DNA from: Ginglymostoma cirratum
Lineage: Eukaryota
Length of the DNA stretch: 64,000 nucleotides
Assembly (NCBI GenBank): GCA_024137785.1
Contig: JAHRHZ010000009.1
Location: 7,522,428-7,586,427, forward strand
Direction of reading: 5' to 3'
Below are positions 13,031 through 53,648 of this stretch, piece after piece (positions within the stretch are counted from its first letter, which is position 1; the number at the start of each line of letters is the position of its first letter). The translations under genes were made by a program, and so were the position numbers. A model generated the notes under the pieces. It saw only the letters and a list, made by a program, of their open reading frames with translations. It had not been told where the DNA came from and did not search any database.

Positions 13031-15104
13031 ACCAACAAAACAAGAGTACTGCCTGGGCTTTTAACCACACAGCCTTTTGATACAATGTTTCAATTTCAGG
13101 AGCTCACTGTATACCACATTTATTTTTAATCTCCAAGCCTAGAAACACTTCCCCCCCCCCCCCCCTCATTTTACAAACACCAAATACCCTACCTAACTTC
13201 GCAACAATGGAAAATGTGCTATTCTGTGCGAGGAGGAGGTCCCGAATTTGCATGAGGCAAATAATTGATGAAAGGTAAACCCAAAAATGGAGCCATTGGT
13301 TTGCAAATAGGTTAACATAGAAGCCCATCACCCAAACACCTGCGAACATGGTGATGCATGAAATAGTTGTGGTGAAAGATGCACTCTGAATTACTTGGTG
13401 GCGTCATCTTCATAAGTTGGCATTTTCATCACTTTCTCATAATATCTTTGGAAACATCTCATCTGATGATCAATTCTTATCAAGTATAGACAGCCCATCT
13501 AATGCCATGTCCTTTAGTGATTTTAAACCATGATTTATAGAGCATACATTAGTTGGCAGCTGGGTCTTGTCGTTTCTTACTTTTTCAATTTTCCTCTGAG
13601 TATTCTGTATTTGACCTGGCTCTCAGTTGTTATACACTGACAAGTGCATTTTTGTTCACGCCTTTTGTGCATCAGTGCCTCCTGCACTATCGTAGTTTGA
13701 TTTTGTTTTATGCTTCTAAGGTGTCCCAGTCTGCTGCAGCTCCTGATTCTCTCAGATGATTGGTGCAGAGCGTGGGCCTTAATTTATCTTCTCCTTGATT
13801 TTCTTGATTCACCTCAAGCCTAATCAATTCCCAATTTTCTCCTAATTTAGAAAGTTTTAAACAGTTTAAGCTGTTTTCTGTACCTTGTTGATATAGACAA
13901 AATGTCAATGCAAACAAATTTGACAAAAGTATGTAGGCCCTGTTAGACTGGTATTAATGCTTGTTAGAGCTTATGTAGACATAAGGGCTGGGATATTCCA
14001 ATAACCAGATAGTCGATGGCACAGCACAGACTTGAGTTGTGCGTTGTGAAAGCCCAGAGGCAGCAGACTCTGTGGGTACTACCTGGGAAATTGAAACCTC
14101 AGGTGGGCAGTTCCTAGTATCTGAAACCCACCCCTCAAAACAAAAAGCTTTAACATCACAGGATCCAGAGGGCTCTACTTGGGTAAAGCTATTAGCTACC
14201 CAGGATCACTTGGACAATTACAACCCTTGACTACCTCCTGGGTAATTGTTAAGCTGATGCCCAACTACACCTCCCTTGACTCCTGCCACTGGGACCCTGG
14301 CAACCAACGACATCATGTCTGCCCTGACAGTCTTCTCTTGCCTCACCTTCCTCCAAAACACCAGCCCTGACAACCCCACCTCCCCGACACACACCGACTG
14401 CCATTTTAACTCCGCAATTTGCTGCTAGACATCTAAGTCTCAGAAAAAAGCAATTGACTACTACAAAATAGTACAGTTTAACCACCCCTAGCCCCCCCAA
14501 AAAAAAATTATCTTGCATGATGTAGAGGTTTGTGTGGATTTCAGATATGCTTCACATTTCTGAAGGAGCCAGGGTTAGGATACTCAACTAGAAATGTGGA
14601 GCACAATAACAGTGCTTTTTTTTAAAAAAAAAAAAAATTGCACTCCTTGTAATATCTGGACTAAAATTTACTCTTAAAATAGGAATGAGTGTAGGTTCTA
14701 TCATGCTTTGATTAAAAGAAACAAATACTTGAAAAATCTAGTTAGAATTTATTGATACATGTATTTGTGACCCATTTAATGGTAGTAAAAATATACTTTG
14801 CAAATCAGGATGCACAAAACCATCAGCAACACTTGTAATGGATTTTCCTTTTGCAGCTCTTGGACTACTTTCTTTGAGTGAAATGAATTTGATTCATTAA
14901 TGCATTCCTTAATTAAATGCATTAAGATTTTATGCCTATAGATTCTTTATGATGTACTCAAGCCACAAGATTGAACTGGTTTCATCTGTGCTGTTGAATC
15001 ATCTTGTTATGGAAGAGGAAAACATGAGCACTCTGCAAAAGGTCTTTTGTAGATTGTTTAATTCCGCACACAATTTTTTTGGAGATTCCACCCATGAACG
15101 GGAG

Positions 15105-15470
15105 ACAGTGACACACTGGTAGTCATAATGGGCTATCATTCCAGAGGCCAAGGTTAATGCTTTAGGTTCAGGGTTCAGATCCCATCATAGCTGGTGAATT
15201 TAAATCAGTTAATAAAAGATTTTGAAATTAAAAGCTAGTCCCAGTAATGGTGGTGATGGAACTACTATTGATTGTTGTTAAAACCAATTCGGTTCACTCA
15301 TGTCTCATATGAAGTTTACAATCTAGCCTGCAAGGGACTCCAGATAGATGGAAATGTGATTTGACTCTTAACTGTCCTGTAAAATGGCCACTCAGTTCCA
15401 AGGAGCTAGGGATGGGCAGCAAATGCTGCCCTGTCCAATGATGCTCATATCCCATTAAATAATAAATGTT
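15105..15470 (+). mobile_element. tRNA-derived SINE with LINE-like 3' tail
   Basis: ccagaggcca.gg.taatgc..gggttc.gatccca.catagc head and gactcttaactg.cct..agggatgggca..aaatgctg.cct tail. A second copy lies at 17545-17820. Confidence 0.6.
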
Positions 15471-15599
15471 TAAAAAGCACAGACAGGCTGAAGATTTAAG
15501 TATGGTTCCCGTATTTAAATTATGGGGATGGATTGAGAGATACAGAGAAAGTAACTGGCATACAAAAGAACTGAGGAAATAGGCATAGGGAAGGAGAGA

Positions 15600-16285
15600 A
15601 TAACCATTTTTACATGGCAAAAGCATTTTGCAGTCAATTTAAGCAGTTTGAAGTGCAGTCACTTTGTACCTTCAAGAAACATGGCAGCCAGATTGCACAC
15701 AGCAAGGCCCCACTAACAGTGCAAAATTAATGATCAGATAAGCTGTTCGTGCATTGTTGATTAATCATTGGTCAGGCCTCCAGTGGTGAATTCTCCTGCT
15801 CTCATTCAGAATCATTCTGAAGGCTGTTTTAACTTTCACCTGAGACGACTTGTGGCACATTGGTTAGCACTGCTGCCTCACAGCGCCAGCGACTTGAGTT
15901 CGATTCCACCCTCGGGCTACTGTCTATGTGGATTTTGTGCATTCTTCCCATGTCTGCATGGGTTTCCTCCCACAGTCCAGAGATGTGCAGGTTGGGTGGA
16001 TTGGCCGTGCGATATTGCCCGTAGTGTTCACGGAGGTGTAGATTATGTGGGCTGTAGGGGGATGGGTCTGGGTGGGATGTTCCGAGGTTTGGTGTGGACT
16101 TGTTGGGCCGAAGGGCCTGTTTCCACACTGTAGGGATTCTATGAGACGGAATTTTTTTTTCACTTCCAACAGTGTAAGACTTAATTAGTAGTATGGTGCG
16201 TAGTCAGCCTACGTTATGTGCTGAGTCTCGTGTGGATTGACCCACAACATTATGATTTAGAAGGGAGGGTGCTACCACCAGCTTA
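15600..16285 (-). mobile_element. Deu-domain-type SINE split by an HE1 SINE insertion
   Basis: tttgaagtgcagtcact..aacatggcagcca.attgcacacagcaag..taatgatcagataa is the reverse complement of the Deu core/tail; the head resumes at ~16160-16285. Confidence 0.6.
15849..16141 (+). mobile_element. HE1-type V-SINE
   Basis: gtggcaca.tggttagcactgctgcctcacagcgccag head, V-domain (gggtttcctcccacagtcca.agatgtgcagg), tail gggcctgtttccacactgtagggattcta; flanked by tgagacg at 15841 and 16142. Confidence 0.85.
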
Positions 16286-16364
16286 AAAATGGAAGTGTTT
16301 GTTCTTGGAGTTTTCCAGTTTTTGTATGAACTTGCTTACTAATTGTTTTCCCTTATCACTTAAG

Positions 16365-16590
16365 TCGACAGCAGGAAATAGAAGAGAAGCTGATTGAGGA
16401 AGAAACTGCAAGAAGGGTGGAAGAACTTGTGGCCAAACGTGTGGAAGAGGAGTTGGAGAAACGTAAAGATGAGATTGAGCGTGAGGTACTCCGGCGTGTC
16501 GAGGAGGCCAAGCGCATTATGGAAAAGCAATTGTTGGAGGAGCTTGAGCGACAGCGACATGCTGAGCTCGCTGCACAGAAAGCTAGAGAG
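16365..16590 (+). CDS. ARGLU1: ARGLU1 coding exon 2
   Basis: Acceptor taag|T completes Ile; [75 protein letters not shown]; donor GAG|GTAACG at 16591. Confidence 0.97.
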
Positions 16591-17544
16591 GTAACGCTCG
16601 ATCGTTGGAAAAGCAAACGACAGTCCATGGCAAAACTTTCAGTCGCAGTCAATGGTCACCACTTAATCTTCATCAGTAAATGGAATCAGAATACATCTTA
16701 CCCTTTTCCAGCAGTCTGCAGTACCATAGCTTTGTTTTTCATACGTTGTATTTCTTCTGATGTACAAATGAACATTTCATAATAGTTTAAGATGCTAAAT
16801 GTAGTTTTTAATTAGGCTACACAAAGCATTGTTCCATGGCATTTGCTCTTTAAATTCAAGAACTTTTGGTACAATAATACTAATGTTCTAGCATAACCTC
16901 TGTTGAAAATCTTTTCCCCACACTTCAGTTTAATTGAAACTTTTGCCATGGCTGCAGAATTTTTTTACCTAACCATGCAAAAGCTTTTTTCTTTAAGGCT
17001 TTTCAGTCTCGCAATTTGCCCTTCATTTGTGTAAACACTTCGTATTTCATCCTTACTCCAAGTGGCGTAGTCTTTCCAAAGCTGAAGTAGGTCAATGTGG
17101 TTGAACTTGCAGTGCTTGCTTATGGCAAGTGGTTTATGTTTGCTATATATTCGTCTTAAATAAGATTATAAAGGGGAAATTTTACCTTGAGGTTTCTGAT
17201 ATCAGCCTCCATTTTATTCAAAGGATTCTTGTGGGACTGGAGCTAGTCCTTTGTAACCCACCTCCAGCGTGTAGTTATAAGTACCTTTACCTCCCAAGAG
17301 GGCTATTGGCGACTGGTGAGTCCCTCCTTGAAGCTAGACATCCTATATATTATGTGGTCATGGTATTGGAAGCTGGAAAATGTCTTCCTATGAAATAGTG
17401 AATTGCTACTTCTATTAATTTTGCTAGCACTCATCACTCCTGGATTCTGAAATGTTTAGTCTTACAGAAAAGTGCAGTGCCTAGCTGACCATACAACTTC
17501 AAAAATGTAACATTAACCATTTAAGTATAAAGTAACTTGGGGAA

Positions 17545-17820
17545 GTGGTAGTGCAGGGTAACTTCACTGGAAAATAGAACCCCAGGCTAATATTTGGAAA
17601 CATGGGTTTGAATCTCACCATAGCAGATTTGAATTCAGTAAAAAGCTGGCTTAGTGGCGACCATGTAACCCCTTGTCATTAGCTGTAAAAGCACGTCACG
17701 GAGGGAGATCTGCCATATTCCAGACCCACAGCTATATGGTTGACTTTACCTCCCTATGGGCAGTTAGGAATGAACAATACATGAAGGCCTAGCCAGGAAA
17801 GCCCTCATCCTATGAATATT
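17545..17820 (+). mobile_element. tRNA-derived SINE, same family as 15105-15470
   Basis: Shared head and tail motifs; the only clear repeat inside ARGLU1 intron 2. Confidence 0.55.
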
Positions 17821-19558
17821 TTTTAAAACCACCATTTTAACGATGTGTGCATTTTCTTTCAAGTAATATATTTAAACTTTAATGTCAGGCGTTGTTATAT
17901 AGAATTAGGACTGAAGCACACAATAGTGCTTTGTTTACCGTATGTTTTATCTGATGTTACTTTGTGAAGTTTTATATGGCCCTATGCATTTATGGTGACA
18001 ACCTGTTTATACTGACCAAAAAACTGAAGCCCCAGTTCCATTTTTATATATTTATGCCAAATATTTACAGGTTATGTCAATGACATTATAAACATTTACA
18101 TGGTTAGTTTTCCTTTGTTTTATAATTATCAAAGGGTTTTATTATCCCTGTCATTCCGTCCCTACCTTTGGGAAGTTTGCATCTTTTACGTAATTGATCA
18201 AATTTACTTGTAAATAGCTGGGGGTGAAAATGGCATAATCTCATTATCTCAGATTCAGACCTAAGGCTTAATTTTGGATCTTTGCTTCCCCTCCCCCGTT
18301 GAGTTTATTTCAGTATATTTCACATTCATTTTATGCCCTCCTCTATCCCCCAGCCTTCATATCTCAATTCAGACATAAACAAGATCAAAGCCTAGACTTA
18401 GAATTAATGCGTGGCGGTCATATGACCTTAACACTTGGAAAAGAAATCCACGTGTAAAGTTCATTACTTTGTATAAAATATAAAAATATACCAATAGCTT
18501 TAATATCCCTCCTTTTCTGAAAGGTAAGAATGAATTGAATTTGTTTGTCTTGTATTGTCGTGTTGACAAATGGCATTAACACATTTAGTGATTGCCAGTG
18601 CAAAGTCATTGGATGAATAGGACTTTATATTGTTCTTCAAAGGGAAGGCGGTTAGTTTGTTTTGCTGATAAAATGTACTGGTTATTCCTCTAGGTATAAA
18701 ACCACCAGAAGTTTTGGCTACATTGACTTACTGACATATTTTACAAGTAATTAAGTTTTGGTAACTTGTACTTTCTTGCTTTAATCAATTGACATCAAGT
18801 GAAGGAGTTTTTTTTGTTTACGCAGTTGGTCTGTCAGAAAATTTTTCATTTCAGAATGTTCTTGTTTGCAGCCTTGAAGGGGGAATCATTCTACATTTTC
18901 TTTATATTTAATGCATCGAAGAGTGGCATAAAATGTGTTAGGAAAATACTACAGTTAATTTACATGACATTTTCATAAAATTAAAGACCTTCAAATTGAG
19001 TTTATATTCTGAAACACTATTATAAGTTGCATGATAGCCAGTGCTGCCTCATTTTTGTGTTTTCATTTCATTTTAGTTGTAAATTTTCAGCGTATTGATT
19101 TACTGTAAGATGTTGTCTATTATGTTATGATTTGCATTCTAACTTATTTATATCCAGGCTATTTTAAGTTCCAGGGTTGATGAGTGTCAGCTTGTAGCAC
19201 ATTACTAATCATAGTAAGATCATTTTTCTTTTTCATGTTTCTTCATAGTTTGCTTGGCTTCATGTTAACATTGTCATCCTACAGACAAGGGCAAATTTCC
19301 TGGGCCATTCACAGTACAGAAAATATAATTTTCCGTTCTGTGTACATTGTGAAATTGTTAACATTAAACACCTGGAAGGTGTTTGTCTGAATTCTGCAGC
19401 AGAGTAATCTCCAAACGTTGAAGTGTATTTAGTAGCTGAAGTAGATCATTATAAAATCTTTTGATCCCAAAATTAGTATAAATCATTCAGCATTTACTCA
19501 TCCCCTTGTAATAACAAAGTGCCTTGATTTGAAAAGTTGCTTGATCACCAATAGCTTA

Positions 19559-19965
19559 AATGGCGCTTATGTTCTCAGAACGGAACAAACCATCGTTTCT
19601 CCTACTGTGAAAGGTGCTCTCAGTTCCACAGAAGGATGGATTAAAGTTTGTATTTTTCACTAACAGTAAATGTATCTTTCTTATTAATTGTTTGCCTTAG
19701 GAATGGTGATTTATATTGTTTCTTCTTACCGTAAACATCTGCATTCCTCAGCTCAGCCTACGTTGTGTTGTGTTTCTTGTTATTGGCTGAGCTGCTGATG
19801 CAGGTGTTGCCAAGCTAACAGTACAAATCAGTTTAAAGAGGAAGCTGGCGCATATGGCAGCCGAGGAGCACACTCTGCAGGACACTGGACGAGACAGTAA
19901 ATATTCAACTTTTAATGCTGATTAATGGCGTTATAGGTAAAGAATACGTAGGTATTTGTAATTGC
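19559..19965 (+). promoter_or_regulatory. ARGLU1: ARGLU1 intron-2 ultraconserved splicing-control element (copy 1)
   Basis: Position near the 3' end of intron 2. Sequence cagtacaaatcagtttaaagaggaagctggcgcatatggcagccgaggagcacactctgcaggacactgga...ataggtaaagaatacgtaggta matches my recollection of the human ARGLU1 UCE (Pirnie et al. 2017, NAR). Boundaries approximate. Confidence 0.85.
19881..19936 (+). other. ARGLU1: ARGLU1 alternative poison exon
   Basis: ctctgcag|GAC acceptor; donor TAG|GTAAAG at 19937 (alternative TAG|GTATTT at 19952). In frame after exon 2 it reads DTGRDSKYSTFNAD* with TAA at 19923-19925. Confidence 0.8.
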
Positions 19966-20290
19966 TGAGAAAAGTCTATCTTTTTTATTTTTGTTAATGT
20001 AATTGGTAAAGTTTCTTTAGCAGTTGTATTATGTGTGGTTTAAAAATAGTAATATCAGCAAGCCTGACAAAGGAGGGTTTGGGTCATTGCTGTTTGAGGG
20101 CTGGGGTGGGATGGTTTATACCCAGAAAGAATTTAACTAGGGGCAAAATAGTTCACAAGAATGGCAATAAAAAGGTGGCTGTCTTGGGCATAGTCAGAGG
20201 AAGGAAAGAATACTAAGGGAAGGAGCAGTTAGTGTAGATGCAGTATTAAAATTATTTCTCTCCATTAACATCATATTGTCTCCTACTTAG

Positions 20291-20374
20291 GAGGAAGAAC
20301 GAGCTAAACGAGAAGAACTTGAGCGAATATTGGAGGAAAATAATCGAAAAATAGCAGAAGCTCAAGCTAAATTG
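20291..20374 (+). CDS. ARGLU1: ARGLU1 coding exon 3
   Basis: ctacttag|GAG; EEERAKREELERILEENNRKIAEAQAKL; TTG|GTATGT; 84 nt, phase 0/0. Confidence 0.97.
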
Positions 20375-20406
20375 GTATGTTTCATTAAAATTAAGTTAAT
20401 TTGTTG

Positions 20407-20706
20407 AATGGCAGTTATGTTCTCAGTATGGTTCAGACCATTCTTTTACTTACTGTGTCAAATGCTCTCAGCTCCACAGTAGGATGGATTGAAGCTTGTA
20501 TTTTTCCACTAACAGTAATTGTATTTTATTAATTGCTTGCATTGCGAATGGTGATGGAATATGCTGCTTACAATAAAAGTCTGCATTCCTTTGCTCAACC
20601 TATATTGTATTGTGTCTTGGTACTGACTGAGCTGCTTGAGGCAGTTGCCACGTTAACAGAACAAATCATTTTAAAGAGGAAGCTGGTGCATATGGCAGCT
20701 GGGGAG
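20407..20706 (+). repeat. Diverged second copy of the ARGLU1 UCE core, at the start of intron 3
   Basis: Colinear with 19559-19868; shared blocks include ttatgttctcag, tgctctcag.tccacag.aggatggatt, cactaacagtaa, gaatggtgat, tctgcattcct, ctgagctgct, acaaatca.tttaaagaggaagctgg.gcatatggcagc. Confidence 0.92.
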
Positions 20707-21591
20707 TCTTTACCTCTGTTTACCGCAGAACTTAGAGATATTATTCTTCCAACAGATCAGAAGAGTTTGACCTGATAAGATGCAAATTTAGCAACAAAGA
20801 ATAGCATATTGATTTTGATTTCTCCCAAACATGAGGGTACCAATTATTTAAACTTCTCTCCAGATGCAAAATATGTGGCTGTCATCCTGTAAGGGTAGAG
20901 GGAATATATTTTCTACTTCAGTTGTTTTGAGGAACCGTAGCTGATCTTTATCTCGAGGAAGAATATTATTTTGGATTTCTTGGGTTTCCATACTTTATGG
21001 TTACAATGTACTTTCGTTCACTATGCCACTTCTAAGTGTCAGCTACTCAATCCAATCATAGTAACTTCATTGTCACTGACTCAGGTTACATACCGTCATG
21101 TTTTCAAGTCTGTCAGTATCTACGACTCAATACTGACTCATTGCATGTCTTCACCCTTATCATTTGATAAATGTCTGTTTTTGAGTTTGGTACAAATGAG
21201 TGCTTCACTGAATGCTTGACTACTGAAGCTTGGAAGTTCCGGTTTTCTAGACAGACTACAGAGTCTGATTTGACACATGGGCATTCCTTGTTAAAATTCT
21301 CAACGTCCTTGAACATTCCTGCCTTCTAATCAGTCTTCAGTTCTCAGTTGTGCAACGAAGACAATTGCATTGTGATTTGTCCAGCTTTTGTCAATATCAG
21401 TCATCAACTGACATCAGCTTGCCCTCTCAAATCAAATAGCCAGAGTGCTGTGTTTGCTGACTGGAATTGATTCTTTGCTTCATTCAAATGGACTTGGCTG
21501 TTGCTAAAAACATTTGCTCTAGCTTCAAACCAAGGTAGTTCCTTCAAGTTCCTGAGCTGGGTCACTACTAGCATGCACTTCGCTGAAGAAA

Positions 21592-43250: not shown

Positions 43251-44065
43251 CTGCAGGCAAGAATTATAAAAGCTTTCATTTCGTGTTACAGTTTAAGATA
43301 CCATAAGACATTAATACAATACTGTTTCTGACAGTTAAATACACATTTTTCGTATAACAGAAGCTGGCTGTTTCTCATCGCGGGTTACCTGTTAATGGGT
43401 CTGATCGCTATGTCTGGGTTTGCGAAGGTGCGCAGCACTGTTACTATTTTTTTTAGGTGAGCTGATTCAATCTGAAACAAGTAACCTCTGCAATTCAGGG
43501 AAAGGGATCGAGTTTACATATTTGTCATAAAAGCTGCAACAGAAATAAGAAGCCGGGCGTAAAATGAGGTAATGACAACGTTTAAAAAGGTCAATATACT
43601 GTAATAGATTTCGAGTCCAGAAAGAAGCCAATGCATTAATGCTTTGAAATACTGATCTCGTAAAGAGAAATCCCTCCTTCTGTTTGGGTTCAGTGACTGG
43701 TCTTCCTTTGAATGTTCACTGACTCAGGTTAGACACTCTAAAATTGTTCGAATACGAATACAAATACAAATATCACCGTTGTCATGTCGTATGCGATTAT
43801 ACAAGTGAATCTTCCATAAAGTCGCACAAAACGATTAAATTAAATCTGCAAACTTGGAGTGTAAACTGTATCGTCATGCATTTCCGGGCTAGCTTTTAAG
43901 TCGATGCTGCTAGCATTTAACCCGGTTCATGGTGCCGGAAATCTCTCCATGTGCTGCAGTCTACAAAACTTGCTTCACTTGTACGAATTAAACTTCCATG
44001 GCCACTTTCCAAATTAGACCATATTTCCTCTCCCTCTCTTTTCCTCCCTCTCTCCTACAGACACA

Positions 44066-44535
44066 GATACATCATTAGTTCAAATGCTTTGCATTTACTC
44101 CAATAGATACAAATATATAATTAGTTCAAATGCTTGTTCTTACTCCTAGAGATACTATATATAATTAATTCAAATGTTTGCCCTTACTCCTTTACATACA
44201 AATATATAAGTAGTTCGAATACCTGCTGTTACTCCTATAGATACTACATAATTAATTCAATTATTTGTTCTTACTCCTATGGATATCATATATAATTAAT
44301 TCAAATGTTTGTCCTTACTCCCGTGAATACAAATTTATAATTAGTTTGAACACCTCTTGTTACTCCTTTAGATACTATGTATAAGAAATTCAAATGTTTG
44401 TCCTTACTTCTATAGATACAAGTATATTAGTTCACATGCCTGCTCTTAGTCCCATCCATACTATATATAATTAATAAAAATGTTTGTCGTTGCTCTTTAT
44501 AGATACAGTTTGTATTATTTCAAATGCTTGCCCTT
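44066..44535 (+). repeat. Minisatellite, ~11 units of ~44 bp
   Basis: Consensus gatac-(a/t)atatataatta(g/a)ttcaaatg(c/t)ttg..cttactcctata; units start near 44066, 44106, 44151, 44195, 44240, 44282, 44326, 44371, 44415, 44457, 44502. Confidence 0.9.
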
Positions 44536-45499
44536 AAAGATTACGCTGTTTCTTCACTGTTGGAATTAAATAACGGCACTAAGGCACATTTTAGGATACA
44601 GGTGCGAATTTTGTCAATAGGCTTTCAAAAATCTACATGTTCTTTGTAAGGTGTATATCTTAATAGGAACAAAAACAAAACGGGGCAAGGTTATGGATTT
44701 GGAGCAAGAGAAGACAACTAACTCTCTCAAGCGGCCAGCACAGCGGTTTAGGCCGAAAAGCTTTCTTCTAGCTATGGATTCATCTGTTCGGTTATAATAA
44801 ACCTTAAATAAATCAGTTTTGCATTTTAAATAATCAAGTGTCCGAAAGCCTTTCAAAAGGGGACGAGTTTTATTCTCCTGACGGTGCATCAATGGATCTG
44901 ACTTTTTTTAAAAAACGTGCTCTTCAGGCCAGCCTTCAGAAACCTATAATGTTCACAAAAGATTATAAGTTGTTAAAAATCACCTTTCATTGCAGCTGAA
45001 GACGTTTCTGCTGTGCAGTCAAACGCGTTTCGCTTGTGGCTTCTGTTCGATTCCTGGGCAACTTTATTTGAAAAAATCCAAGTTTGTGTTGGATTTCAGC
45101 ACCGCACCTTCACAATCACACTGATTGGTTTTCATCGAAACATCCTTAGGGGTCAATAGCATTCTCAGGTACAATGCTGAATCTGTCCTAACTCGGAAAT
45201 AAAACCATTTCCGTCATACTCCAAGACCTTGTGCAATGACATTAAAAATGCTCATGATCTAAAGACAACAAATCCCTCAGAAATCTTTCTTGTTTGCTTT
45301 GTTGTTGTGTCAATCTGCTGTAGATTTTCCAGGAAGTTATAGATACTGATTATATTGACCAACCAGATAATTACTGAATTAGGGACAATATATGATCTGA
45401 TGCAAATTGAAGACAAACACTGAATCTTTCTGAAGCCAACAATGTGACGATTCCAATAATTTGAATTGTAAAATGGGCATTTCTCTTTCGGTGAAATAA

Positions 45500-46215
45500 A
45501 AATAGTTGGAGGAACTCAGCAGGTCTGGCACTATCTGTGGAGGAAAGAAAAAAGCAGGTTCTGGAGAAGGGACGCTGGAGTCAAAACGTTAACTCTGCTT
45601 TCTCCCCACAGGTGCTGCCAGACCAGGGAGAAAGCAAANNNNNNNNNNNNNNNNNNNNNNNNNNNNNNNNNNNNNNNNNNNNNNNNNNNNNNNNNNNNNN
45701 NNNNNNNNNNNNNNNNNNNNNNNNNNNNNNNNNNNNNNNNNNNNNNNNNNNNNNNNNNNNNNNNNNNNNNNNNNNNNNNNNNNNNNNNNNNNNNNNNNNN
45801 NNNNNNNNNNNNNNNNNNNNNNNNNNNNNNNNNNNNNNNNNNNNNNNNNNNNNNNNNNNNNNNNNNNNNNNNNNNNNNNNNNNNNNNNNNNNNNNNNNNN
45901 NNNNNNNNNNNNNNNNNNNNNNNNNNNNNNNNNNNNNNNNNNNNNNNNNNNNNNNNNNNNNNNNNNNNNNNNNNNNNNNNNNNNNNNNNNNNNNNNNNNN
46001 NNNNNNNNNNNNNNNNNNNNNNNNNNNNNNNNNNNNNNTTTGCTTTCTCCCTGGTCTGGCAGCACCTGTGGGGAGAAAGCAGAGTTAACGTTTTGACTCC
46101 AGCGTCCCTTCTCCAGAACCTGCTTTTTTCTTTCCTCCACAGATAGAGCGAGACCTGCCGAGTTTCTCCAGCAATTTCTGTTTCCGCAACCGCAGTTATT
46201 TGTTTTATTTTGTTA
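45500..46215. mobile_element. PLE-derived hairpin element spanning a 400-N gap
   Basis: 45531-45638 is the exact reverse complement of 46039-46146; N run 45639-46038. Confidence 0.7.
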
Positions 46216-50697: not shown

Positions 50698-53648
50698 GTA
50701 AGTGAAACAGCAGACGCCTCTTCTGGAAGGCTCAGCACTTTTTGCAAATCTTATGATTTAATTTCTTGCACAAACATATAGTACAAGGCGGCGTTGACTT
50801 GTTAAGCGTAGTCTCTCTGTCCCTATTCCAGTGTTGGGGTGGGTGGTGGGGTTTACTCTCCTGACAGCGGTGTGTATTCATTGAGACAGTCCGAGGAGAA
50901 ATAGCGCTGGAGCCGGTTCTCCGGGAGGGGACCCGGTCTGTAGTGAAGCCAGATCGCGATCCGCCACGGAGACGCGGTTAGCGACTGCCTGCCCCCTCCC
51001 TCCTCAGTGTGTTTGGAAATGGCTGGGTTTATACATTGAAGGCTTTTTTTTGTTAATGATTGGGAGCGAGGTAGGGGTGCGAGTTTAGTGGCTGGGGGGG
51101 GGGGGAAACACTGGAAAATGAACCGAGCCTGCAGTCTGCATGGGTACAACCTTACTTGGGGCCCTGGGTTGTGAGAACACGAGTTAGGAGGTGCCCGAGA
51201 TAGAGAGGGACACAGTTCGCAGGAAGGGGGTCAGATCGAGCTTTCTTATAGATATAGATATGAAAATCCGCGATGGATGCGGGTGTTAACTCCCAGCGCG
51301 ATGCTAACAGCAGTCTGACAGAAGGGAGCAGGTGGCGTTAGGAGACTCGGTGTTAATATCGGGAGGATACAGCGATCTGCGCTGTCAGTGTTGGAACGGA
51401 TTCTGCAGGAGACGCTTTGCTTGAAGTTTCGACAGCAAGGGGGATTCTCTCCGGGAAACCGCTTGATTTGCCCAGAGTGTATTTCCTGCATTGAAGCTCT
51501 GACCTGAAATGAGTGTTGGTGGAGGAAACGCGGGCTAATTCTGCCCTTCAGAACCCGCACCGAGGTGCAGGCACTAATGAAAATGAACGTCGTCCAGACC
51601 TCCCTCTTAGGTCCATCGTAGGGACTGATATTGTTCACGTCTCCCAGTGCAACTGGTGTAAGAGCAGCAGACTGAACCTTTTCTCGTGTGCCTCAGCCCG
51701 GTGCCATTATCATTGCAAGCCGCCTCTCTTAATACATGGCGCTTTCAGGTCTCCTGGACCGCCACCACCCCCCCCCCCCCCCCCCCCCCCCAACTATCAT
51801 TTCAACGCATAGGAAAAGCAAACAGTTACAATCATTCGCTCCTCCAGTGTTTAGTCTATGAATCAGCTTCTTATCGGAGTTGGGTTAAACCTTTCTGTTG
51901 GAACTCATTCAGCAAATGTTTGTTTAAAGTGTTAGAGCAAATGGGGTGTCCCAGTTACCAAAAACAGGTCAAGATAAGAAACTTGATGACAAATCTAAAT
52001 AGGCTCAGTTTTGACCCTTCCACACCCTGGTTTAATATCTCGCCCTCTCAGCCCTTTGAAAAAAAACACAGCCTCCTCACTCCGTCAGCATTTAGAGTGA
52101 ACAGGGGATTTGACCACTTTATATATTCATTCACCTTTTAGTGCGTATGAACTTTTAAAAAAACTTGATGTTAGTATTTACTATGTAAACACACGTTAAA
52201 AAAATTCTGCACTACCGTTAAAAGATCTTGCAACTTTGAAAGCTGCCTCTTTTGAGAAAAGTATAGGTTCTCACCTCGAAGAAAGGCAGATGGAGGGGGA
52301 AAATAGCGTGCTAGAAATGGCGGGATTGCCTCTAAAACTCCGAAGTCCTAACTTTTTCTTTTTAACGCCTGGACTGTCTCTGTGCCAAATGAGGACTAGA
52401 GATTTTTATTTGAAACGTATAGTATATAAAACTGAGAGTTAGTATGGGAGGATGTACTGCTTGTTCCTTGAAATTTGGGTTAGATTTTGGCACGGAATTA
52501 TGTGTGTATATATATAAAACAACTGAAAAAAATTGATTGAGAAATCACATTACAGGCTAACCATTTATCTTCAGCCCAAGTGACACCTCCGTTCAATACA
52601 AGTTGCGTCAGTTTTTTTCTTCCGTACTTCGGGAAGGCGAACTTGTGAAACTCGCTATTAACGCACCATATGTTCCACAGTACAGGGAGAGAGAAAAAAG
52701 AGTTGATGAAACGCCTTGTGTTCTGGGGGAACCTCAGACTTTAGAGAAAAGCCACCTCCTCGTCACTTAGCATTGAGTCGGGCAGGTGCGAACACTTTCG
52801 GTTAGTGCTGAGATGGGAGAAAATGGTTTATTTAAATGTTAAGAACAGATTGCAGATGGGAGACACTGCTTGGCAAAATAAAAATTCGAGTTTTCACCGG
52901 GGAAGAGTCAATTTCATAAAAGAAGACAGCATTTCTCACACTTCAGCACGATAGGCTTTCTCGCCGTTTCCCAGTCATTTTAAAACGTTGTTCACTGGAG
53001 CCTTACTTCGATGAAACTGCTCAATGTTTCGCTGAAGTAAGGCCCCCTCATTGATCACCGGAAGAAAGTTGAAAGGAGTTTTGAATGAATTATTCTGCAC
53101 TTTCTACCAGGCACCTTACATTACACTGGGAGGCAGCAGCAACAGGTAACCGGGTTTATAACTATGCAGGATATAACAGATACACAGTCATCAAATACGG
53201 ACAGATCCGCTACTGGTGCCCAAATGCTTGAATTACCCAGGCATTTCCCCATTACGCTGTTGTTTAAGCTTCGGGCCATCTTGTGCAAAGTAAGACATCT
53301 CGTTCCGGCCTGTTCTTGGAGCAGTTTAGATAAGCGGCACGTTTGTACAAACCTAACAGATCAAATGGTGCTTGCGGTCAACCTGATAATATCTTCCAAT
53401 TCTCTCTGCGCATCAAGAGATACACACCCTGTAACCCAGACATTTTGCAAACGACATGTAATCGTTGCAAAATTCAGATTGGCCTGCATTGATAAACTTA
53501 CTGTTAAATACGCATTTAAACACGTTAGAAACTTTATTATTTCCCTCCGTTCAGTTAAGCAATAATGCTAATGTATCTCTAGTGCTATTTGTTTGGATAT
53601 ATAAAACAGAGCACATATTAAACTTTAAAACAAATCAGACTAAACTGA

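Follow-up and report, generated by a model that had tools for sequence, protein, structure and literature searches.

The window, a stretch of 64,000 nucleotides from Ginglymostoma cirratum, carries on its plus strand a four-exon ARGLU1 gene of 260 codons in total. The coding part of exon 1 (1985-2289) is an RS-rich frame with named ARGLU1 relatives and a GT donor; exon 2 (16365-16590, 226 nt) has PF15346 relatives at 97 to 99%; exon 3 (20291-20374, 84 nt) is in phase 0 at both ends; and the coding part of exon 4 lies at 24528-24695. In a protein search of the 4.36-Gb assembly (three candidates scored), exon 2 had a single match, indicating that ARGLU1 is single-copy. A turtle ARGLU1 entry (protein P0022) joins exon 2 straight to exon 4 without exon 3, which may be a gene-model artefact. 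Intron 3 (4.15 kb) carries a LINE-type reverse-transcriptase frame fragment (21580-23125, minus strand), with related pieces elsewhere in the window. Other parts of the window hold a 44-nt unit repeated in tandem about 11 times (44052-44536), a 146-nt inverted repeat (45493-45638 and 46039-46184, 94.5% identity) flanking a 400-base run of N, and a CpG-island-like segment (51001-51500, observed/expected 0.74) distant from the ARGLU1 start.

The top self-match of the window is a colinear direct repeat on the plus strand, with one copy in intron 2 (copy 1, 19556-19868) and the other at the start of intron 3 (copy 2, 20404-20706); the two are 78.7% identical over 315 columns (E 7e-66), with 247 matches, 54 substitutions, and 6 gap events. 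Copy 1 is the duplicated part of the intron-2 conserved element and corresponds to human reporter segment 168-1 plus most of segment 168-2; copy 2 is a diverged, 3'-truncated duplicate of it. An earlier note on this DNA had claimed that the ARGLU1 intron-2 element is duplicated in cis, as a colinear direct repeat about three-quarters identical, that the second copy begins some 30 nt past the exon-3 donor, and that the duplicated unit contains no coding exon. All of this is borne out, copy 2 starting at 20404 behind an exon 3 that ends at 20374; the span, which the note had carried on to 20770, must be shortened, as similarity stops at 20706. A genome search with copy 1, which skips common words so that its counts are lower bounds, found at least two places and returned copy 1 and copy 2 alone. 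An assembly artefact was rejected because a divergence of 21% is not allelic and because six own-species sequencing runs from three studies, one of which may be the source of the assembly, hold 77 to 100% of the sampled copy-2 words (shares of 0.77-1.00).

Words of copy 2 are contained in 20 of the 24 runs listed. Besides the own-species runs, these include 13 runs from five studies of a second organism (organism B), each with a share of 0.20 (6 of 30 words), and one further run of organism B with a share of 0.13; rows at 0.13 and 0.00 were left out of the run comparison. Copy 2 shares exact stretches of at most 17 nt with copy 1 and at most 26 nt with the outgroup locus described below; since both lengths fall short of the 31-nt search words, organism B probably carries its own copy 2, and the words speak at most for its presence. 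A share of 0.20 would correspond to about 95% identity (92-97%) if the differences are evenly spread, and one well-kept block would give an equal share; for an element as slow as copy 1, a share near 0.5 would be expected, at 2% divergence. No third organism with copy-2 words appeared among the runs listed, a short list, so that this weighs little. None of the listed runs with copy-2 words is an RNA run, which speaks neither for nor against expression.

Copy 1 is part of the orthologue of the known ARGLU1 poison/decoy element. The human alternative exon is 58 nt long (PMC6097662) and is given as 57 nt after a 1-nt deletion in the legend of Fig. S8 of PMC5389617, Table 1 of which lists its donor 9-mer. 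Given the 58-nt human exon and a donor 9-mer that maps to 19894-19902, the orthologous, frame-shifting poison/decoy exon occupies 19839-19896, and its acceptor AG falls within the duplicated unit. Exon length and donor also place a branch-point-like motif and a weak acceptor at 19815-19838 (putative branch A at 19818, AG at 19837-38); the exon donor and a cluster of competing donors follow at 19897-20060 and are absent from copy 2. Compared by eye, four of the seven published donor 9-mers are identical here, one agrees at 7 of 9 letters, and two are changed. The locus of copy 1 has the features of an ARGLU1-type element: a 58-nt exon, weak splice sites at both of its ends, and downstream donors that compete. 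In the human reporter, deletion of segment 168-1 had no effect, and deletion of 168-2 or 168-3, or mutation of donors 5 and 6 or of the acceptor, lowered retention (PMC5389617). A conserved hairpin is predicted 5' of the poison-exon branch point (19735-19808, plus strand); it ends about 10 nt before the branch point, is predicted for the outgroup as well, and is not mentioned in the available text of PMC5389617.

The duplicated unit spans the branch-point-like motif, the acceptor, and the first 30 nt of the 58-nt exon, and it is without the last 28 exon bases, the exon donor, and segment 168-3 with its competing donors. The earlier note had the unit halt before the poison-exon acceptor and regarded it as a self-contained module; in fact the AG at 19837-38 lies inside the unit, with its counterpart at 20675-76, and the unit breaks off halfway through the poison exon, with the donor cluster missing. 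As it ends abruptly inside an exon, its 3' end looks like a breakpoint. Six shuffled-control alignments found no remnant of an exon 3 or of a donor cluster behind copy 2 in intron 3 (p 0.35-1.0), and a longer tandem unit that would have included them was therefore rejected. The stretch 19869-20290, which includes the missing part, and the stretch 20707-21575 each have one genome match. The junctions do not discriminate between a short templated insertion and a tandem duplication followed by deletion as the source of the truncation.

For an outgroup, a pattern scan of metagenome contigs yielded one locus, L003, with ARGLU1 exons 2 to 4; similar scans of genome contigs from viruses and prokaryotes gave 0 matches. 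By eye, L003 is similar to the human figure sequence, and reading through its intron 2 gives a match to the corresponding read-through in a named mammalian protein; on those two likenesses it was taken as an amniote-type outgroup. It has one copy of the element, in keeping with the earlier note, which knew the human element as single-copy, and no remnant of copy 2 was found in the whole of its 1239-nt intron 3 (p 0.24-0.80). Copy 1 agrees with this one outgroup at 211 of 238 columns over 19631-19868 and at 66 of 69 over 19800-19868. In a three-way alignment of 227 ungapped columns (19631-19868), 169 columns are common to all three sequences and 3 differ in all; copy 2 matches L003 at 174 of the 227, and identity to the L003 core is 77% for copy 2 and 89% for copy 1. 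The first 75 nt of the unit behave differently: the two copies agree at 57 of 75 positions, whereas L003 matches at 32 of 74. Because this 5' part is common to both copies and not to L003, the comparison points to a duplication that postdates the split from the amniote-type lineage.

Several further features emerged from the alignment to L003. An ACTAAC motif followed by an AG (19659-19672 in copy 1, 20508-20521 in copy 2) is conserved in copy 1, copy 2, and L003 and might be a QKI or SF1 site, although it lies within segment 168-1, the deletion of which was without effect in human cells; in copy 1 it is followed by a 9-mer with the same letters as the donor of the poison exon. Alignment with L003 extends beyond the element within intron 2, without a break from 20050 to exon 3 (20050-20290) and in small blocks at 19178-19232 and 17369-17410, whereas intron 3 does not align. 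Two mutually complementary intron-2 blocks (16621-16642 with 16934-16957), conserved with L003, are predicted to form a long-range helix behind the exon-2 donor, at -28.2 kcal/mol in the window and -26.0 in L003 (reverse strand, about 2185-2207 with 2410-2438); this predicted helix may matter for intron-2 retention. ARGLU1 is unmentioned in the titles and abstract beginnings of the RNA-structure literature searched.

Within the 227 columns, copy 2 has 32 private changes against 5 in copy 1 and 18 in L003 (Tajima p 9e-6). Two proposals of the earlier note are not supported by the comparison. Block-wise conservation found no support in four permutation tests on the pair (p = 0.82, 0.38, 0.23, and 0.33), and against like selection on both copies stand the 32 private changes of copy 2 against 5, the disappearance of its CpGs, and the decay of its hairpin. 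All seven CpGs of copy 1 are absent from copy 2, with changes at 10 of 14 CpG positions versus 48 of 288 others. The predicted hairpin energy is -33.2 kcal/mol in copy 1, -28.5 in L003, and -13.6 in copy 2; when the hairpin was decayed at random by 16 substitutions, 169 of 1000 trials were as weak as copy 2 or weaker. Out of 63 pairs predicted from copy 1 and L003, copy 2 breaks 18 and compatibly changes 5. The strong conservation of an ARGLU1-type element is missing from copy 2.

The copy-2 branch amounts to 0.156 substitutions per site. With the split of the shark and amniote-type lineages taken as 450 My ago, the copy-1/L003 clock would date the duplication to about 196 My (67-393) and give copy 2 a rate of 0.8e-9 per site per year (0.4-2.3e-9), a clock that depends on 5 and 18 events, a single outgroup, and the assumed date of the split. 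Fourfold sites of ARGLU1 differ at 23 of 46, or 0.9e-9 per site per year, and the dS of 0.061-0.111 reported for whale shark and zebra shark over about 50 My (PMC13100897) corresponds by our own arithmetic to 0.6-1.1e-9; the available text of PMC8455134 and PMC10587355 yielded no per-year rates for sharks. Because the copy-2 rate is close to both the fourfold and the shark dS rates, neutral drift suffices, within wide limits, to account for its divergence. Two points weigh on the other side: an older duplication would mean a rate slower than neutral, and the gap events number only 6 in 315 columns.

These dates also bear on the reading that the two-copy state is ancestral to jawed vertebrates, with copy 2 moderately constrained for at least 450 My and lost in bony vertebrates. 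Copy 2 does have the L003 base at 5 columns where copy 1 differs, and its divergence of 0.16 is well below neutral over 450 My; however, the two copies share a base that L003 lacks at 18 columns of the core and, within the 5' 75 nt, at 29 of 74, the outgroup intron 3 holds no remnant of copy 2, and the clock interval excludes 450 My, so that we judge an ancestral pair very improbable.

Intronic snoRNA and scaRNA genes duplicate in cis into the neighbouring intron of the same host gene, and copy 2 is alike in its neighbouring-intron position and its host gene. The earlier note had accordingly raised the idea that the module is a stable noncoding RNA. A structured intronic RNA of this kind, multiplied into the next intron, would fit the copy-1 core, which folds better than shuffles (z -2.8), and the predicted hairpin common to L003; yet the folding z is +1.1 for the copy-2 core and -0.8 for the outgroup unit, and the breakage of 18 of the 63 predicted pairs in copy 2 also speaks against it. 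Rfam gave no match at gathering score in the window and, at E <= 5 over 15000-25000, none except one bacterial family at 15522, and a C box is absent from all three sequences (copy 1, copy 2, and L003). With no family match, no C box, and a structure not kept in copy 2, a C/D or H/ACA snoRNA or a scaRNA was rejected, and a structured RNA in the wider sense seems to us scarcely credible.

The best-preserved part of copy 2 is its acceptor end (20653-20706, plus strand), which comprises an orphan branch-point-like motif, the AG at 20675-76, and the first 30 nt of the exon copy. Branch-point motif and AG are kept at aligned positions, with 8 pyrimidines in 17 positions, as in copy 1, and an A at -3; the acceptor is 302 nt past the exon-3 donor. 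When the published 25-nt human deletion tiles were mapped onto the element by position, 4 of 48 constrained columns had changed in the branch-point and acceptor tiles versus 32 of 157 elsewhere (p 0.039; base-matched p 0.036; without CpGs p 0.031; all uncorrected). Tile 6, the deletion of which raised splicing in human cells (PMC5389617), had changed at 1 of 24 columns versus 35 of 181 (p 0.049, base-matched 0.067, or 0.014 with each gap column counted singly and tiles 1 to 5 as the comparison; all uncorrected), and a block around the upstream ACTAAC motif at 1 of 27 (p 0.028, uncorrected). Three of the ten windows reach p < 0.05, the window from -40 to +20 gives p 0.27, and best-window scans on constrained columns give p 0.26-0.52; the preservation of the acceptor end is a lead, not a finding. 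Gene conversion behind the well-kept acceptor block is not favoured, because at 19831 it is copy 2, not copy 1, that has the base of the outgroup.

Because the acceptor end is the best-kept part, an orphan decoy acceptor is a live alternative, if one that we hold to be rather unlikely: copy 2 would have been pared to a branch point and AG that engage the exon-3 donor unproductively or rarely. Such a decoy would delay intron-3 removal, promote in-frame skipping of exon 3, or feed decay via a distant donor, and it would serve as a second, weaker ARGLU1 feedback point. This is what could be left of the two-module feedback system proposed in the earlier note, whose premise of like selection on both copies is not supported; an acceptor-only decoy in intron 3 is a tentative candidate in its place. 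For it speak the preservation of the acceptor end (p 0.014-0.067, depending on window and counting), the finding that the human 58-nt exon, together with short flanking sequence, caused a foreign intron to be retained (PMC6097662), and the precedent of a decoy acceptor behind a donor in In100, the unproductive engagement of which behind a caspase-2 exon would be a model for exon-3 skipping here (PMC2082412). If the copy-2 acceptor were used, a predicted 32 codons in frame with exon 3 would run to a stop (20677-20775, plus strand); the nearest donor-like site is 113 nt past this stop (20773-75), and a premature-stop reading needs that donor to be used. By a crude consensus count, this nearest donor-like 9-mer is 212 nt past the copy-2 acceptor.

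Against the decoy, the scan-corrected values and the -40 to +20 window given above do not single out the acceptor end, and copy 2 is without a weak donor of its own and without the donor cluster, which both the ARGLU1 model and the decoy model stress (PMC5389617, PMC6097662); nor does copy 2 show the In100 pattern. Neither predicted copy-2 tail occurs in any of 127 proteins (120 of the 179 relatives and 7 further ones), none of them named as cartilaginous fish, which makes this a weak test. It is a rather unlikely possibility that, in one cartilaginous-fish lineage, half of an ultraconserved element was copied and its branch point and acceptor alone were kept under selection, giving ARGLU1 an acceptor-only switch as a second feedback control over exon 3 and intron 3. 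If true, copy 2 would amount to a deletion experiment made by nature, with the splice signals set apart from the hairpin and the donor cluster; with its acceptor end still selected, copy 2 would represent a new splicing control point made from half an old one and would tell which parts work alone.

Copy 2 also contains an AATAAA hexamer (20572-20577, plus strand) that is missing from copy 1 and L003 at this position. As an intronic 3'-end signal, it would end some transcripts early, to give a 215-aa product without exon 4, or the copy-2 acceptor would supply an alternative last exon of 32 codons. The hexamer is the sole AATAAA in the 4.15-kb intron 3, TGTA occurs at 20497 and 20520, and the G+T fraction is 0.65-0.71 at 20 to 60 nt downstream; moreover, Chan and Pek are said to have found premature cleavage of a fly Arglu1 intron. 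On the other hand, the chance of at least one AATAAA in 303 nt is about 0.19, the TGTA motifs came with the sequence of copy 1, cleavage would be expected to be suppressed by the exon-3 donor close by, and no AATAAA or ATTAAA occurs past the acceptor within 20677-21575. We regard a 3'-end signal as improbable.

The reading that we prefer, and consider probable, is that copy 2 is a truncated local duplicate under relaxed selection. In an old local duplication, about 300 nt, reaching from the 5' end of the element halfway into the poison exon, would have landed 30 nt past the exon-3 donor; the copy would have been this short from the start or trimmed later by deletion. Copy 1 would have remained the working decoy/poison-exon element, and copy 2, which lost or never had the donor cluster, would then have drifted at an approximately neutral rate. 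It is presumably tolerated on account of a weak acceptor that has no donor close by to pair with, so that exon 3 would still splice to exon 4. The age and mechanism of this event and the lack of function of copy 2 are what we infer, and copy 2 is most likely a relic. Even as such, it shows an ultraconserved splicing element released from constraint: copy 2 has undergone about six times the change of its parent in the same gene and the same mutational setting, and this excess supports selection, not a mutational cold spot, as the reason for the conservation of copy 1. Copy 2 is also a possible lineage marker. Chan and Pek reportedly compared the Arglu1 sisRNA gene across species, which may bear on novelty. 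No report of a second ARGLU1 element was found among the titles and abstract beginnings searched, including those for ARGLU1 with shark, and none is mentioned in the available text of PMC5737842, PMC10858910, and PMC10789245; copy 2 is thus a real, truncated, and apparently unreported duplicate of a known element.

Compared with the ARGLU1 element described by Pirnie et al. (PMC5389617) and Parra et al. (PMC6097662), as far as the available text goes, copy 1 lies in the same intron and has the same exon length. Copy 2 retains the branch point, the acceptor, and 30 exon bases of that element but not the 3' half of the exon and the donor cluster; and whereas the published element is one, in intron 2, copy 2 stands in intron 3, the last of the gene, with 30 nt between it and the donor before it. 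In100 of caspase-2 (Havlioglu et al., PMC2082412) resembles copy 2 in being a branch point and acceptor without a partner, located in the intron directly after the donor of an exon. It requires a pyrimidine tract, a CAG, and a U/C-rich PTB-binding part of 20 to 60 nt (PMC2082412); copy 2 has the UAAC branch site, but only 8 of 17 pyrimidines and AAG instead of CAG, and the next 100 nt, with 48% pyrimidines, two UCUU, and one CUCU, do not amount to such a PTB-binding part. Duplicated conserved noncoding elements and tandem splicing elements (PMC7139118, 10.1101/2025.08.16.670673) likewise comprise two related copies; in the accounts available, those stem from whole-genome, gene, or coding-exon duplication, whereas here a non-coding half-exon has been duplicated within one single-copy gene, from one intron to the next.
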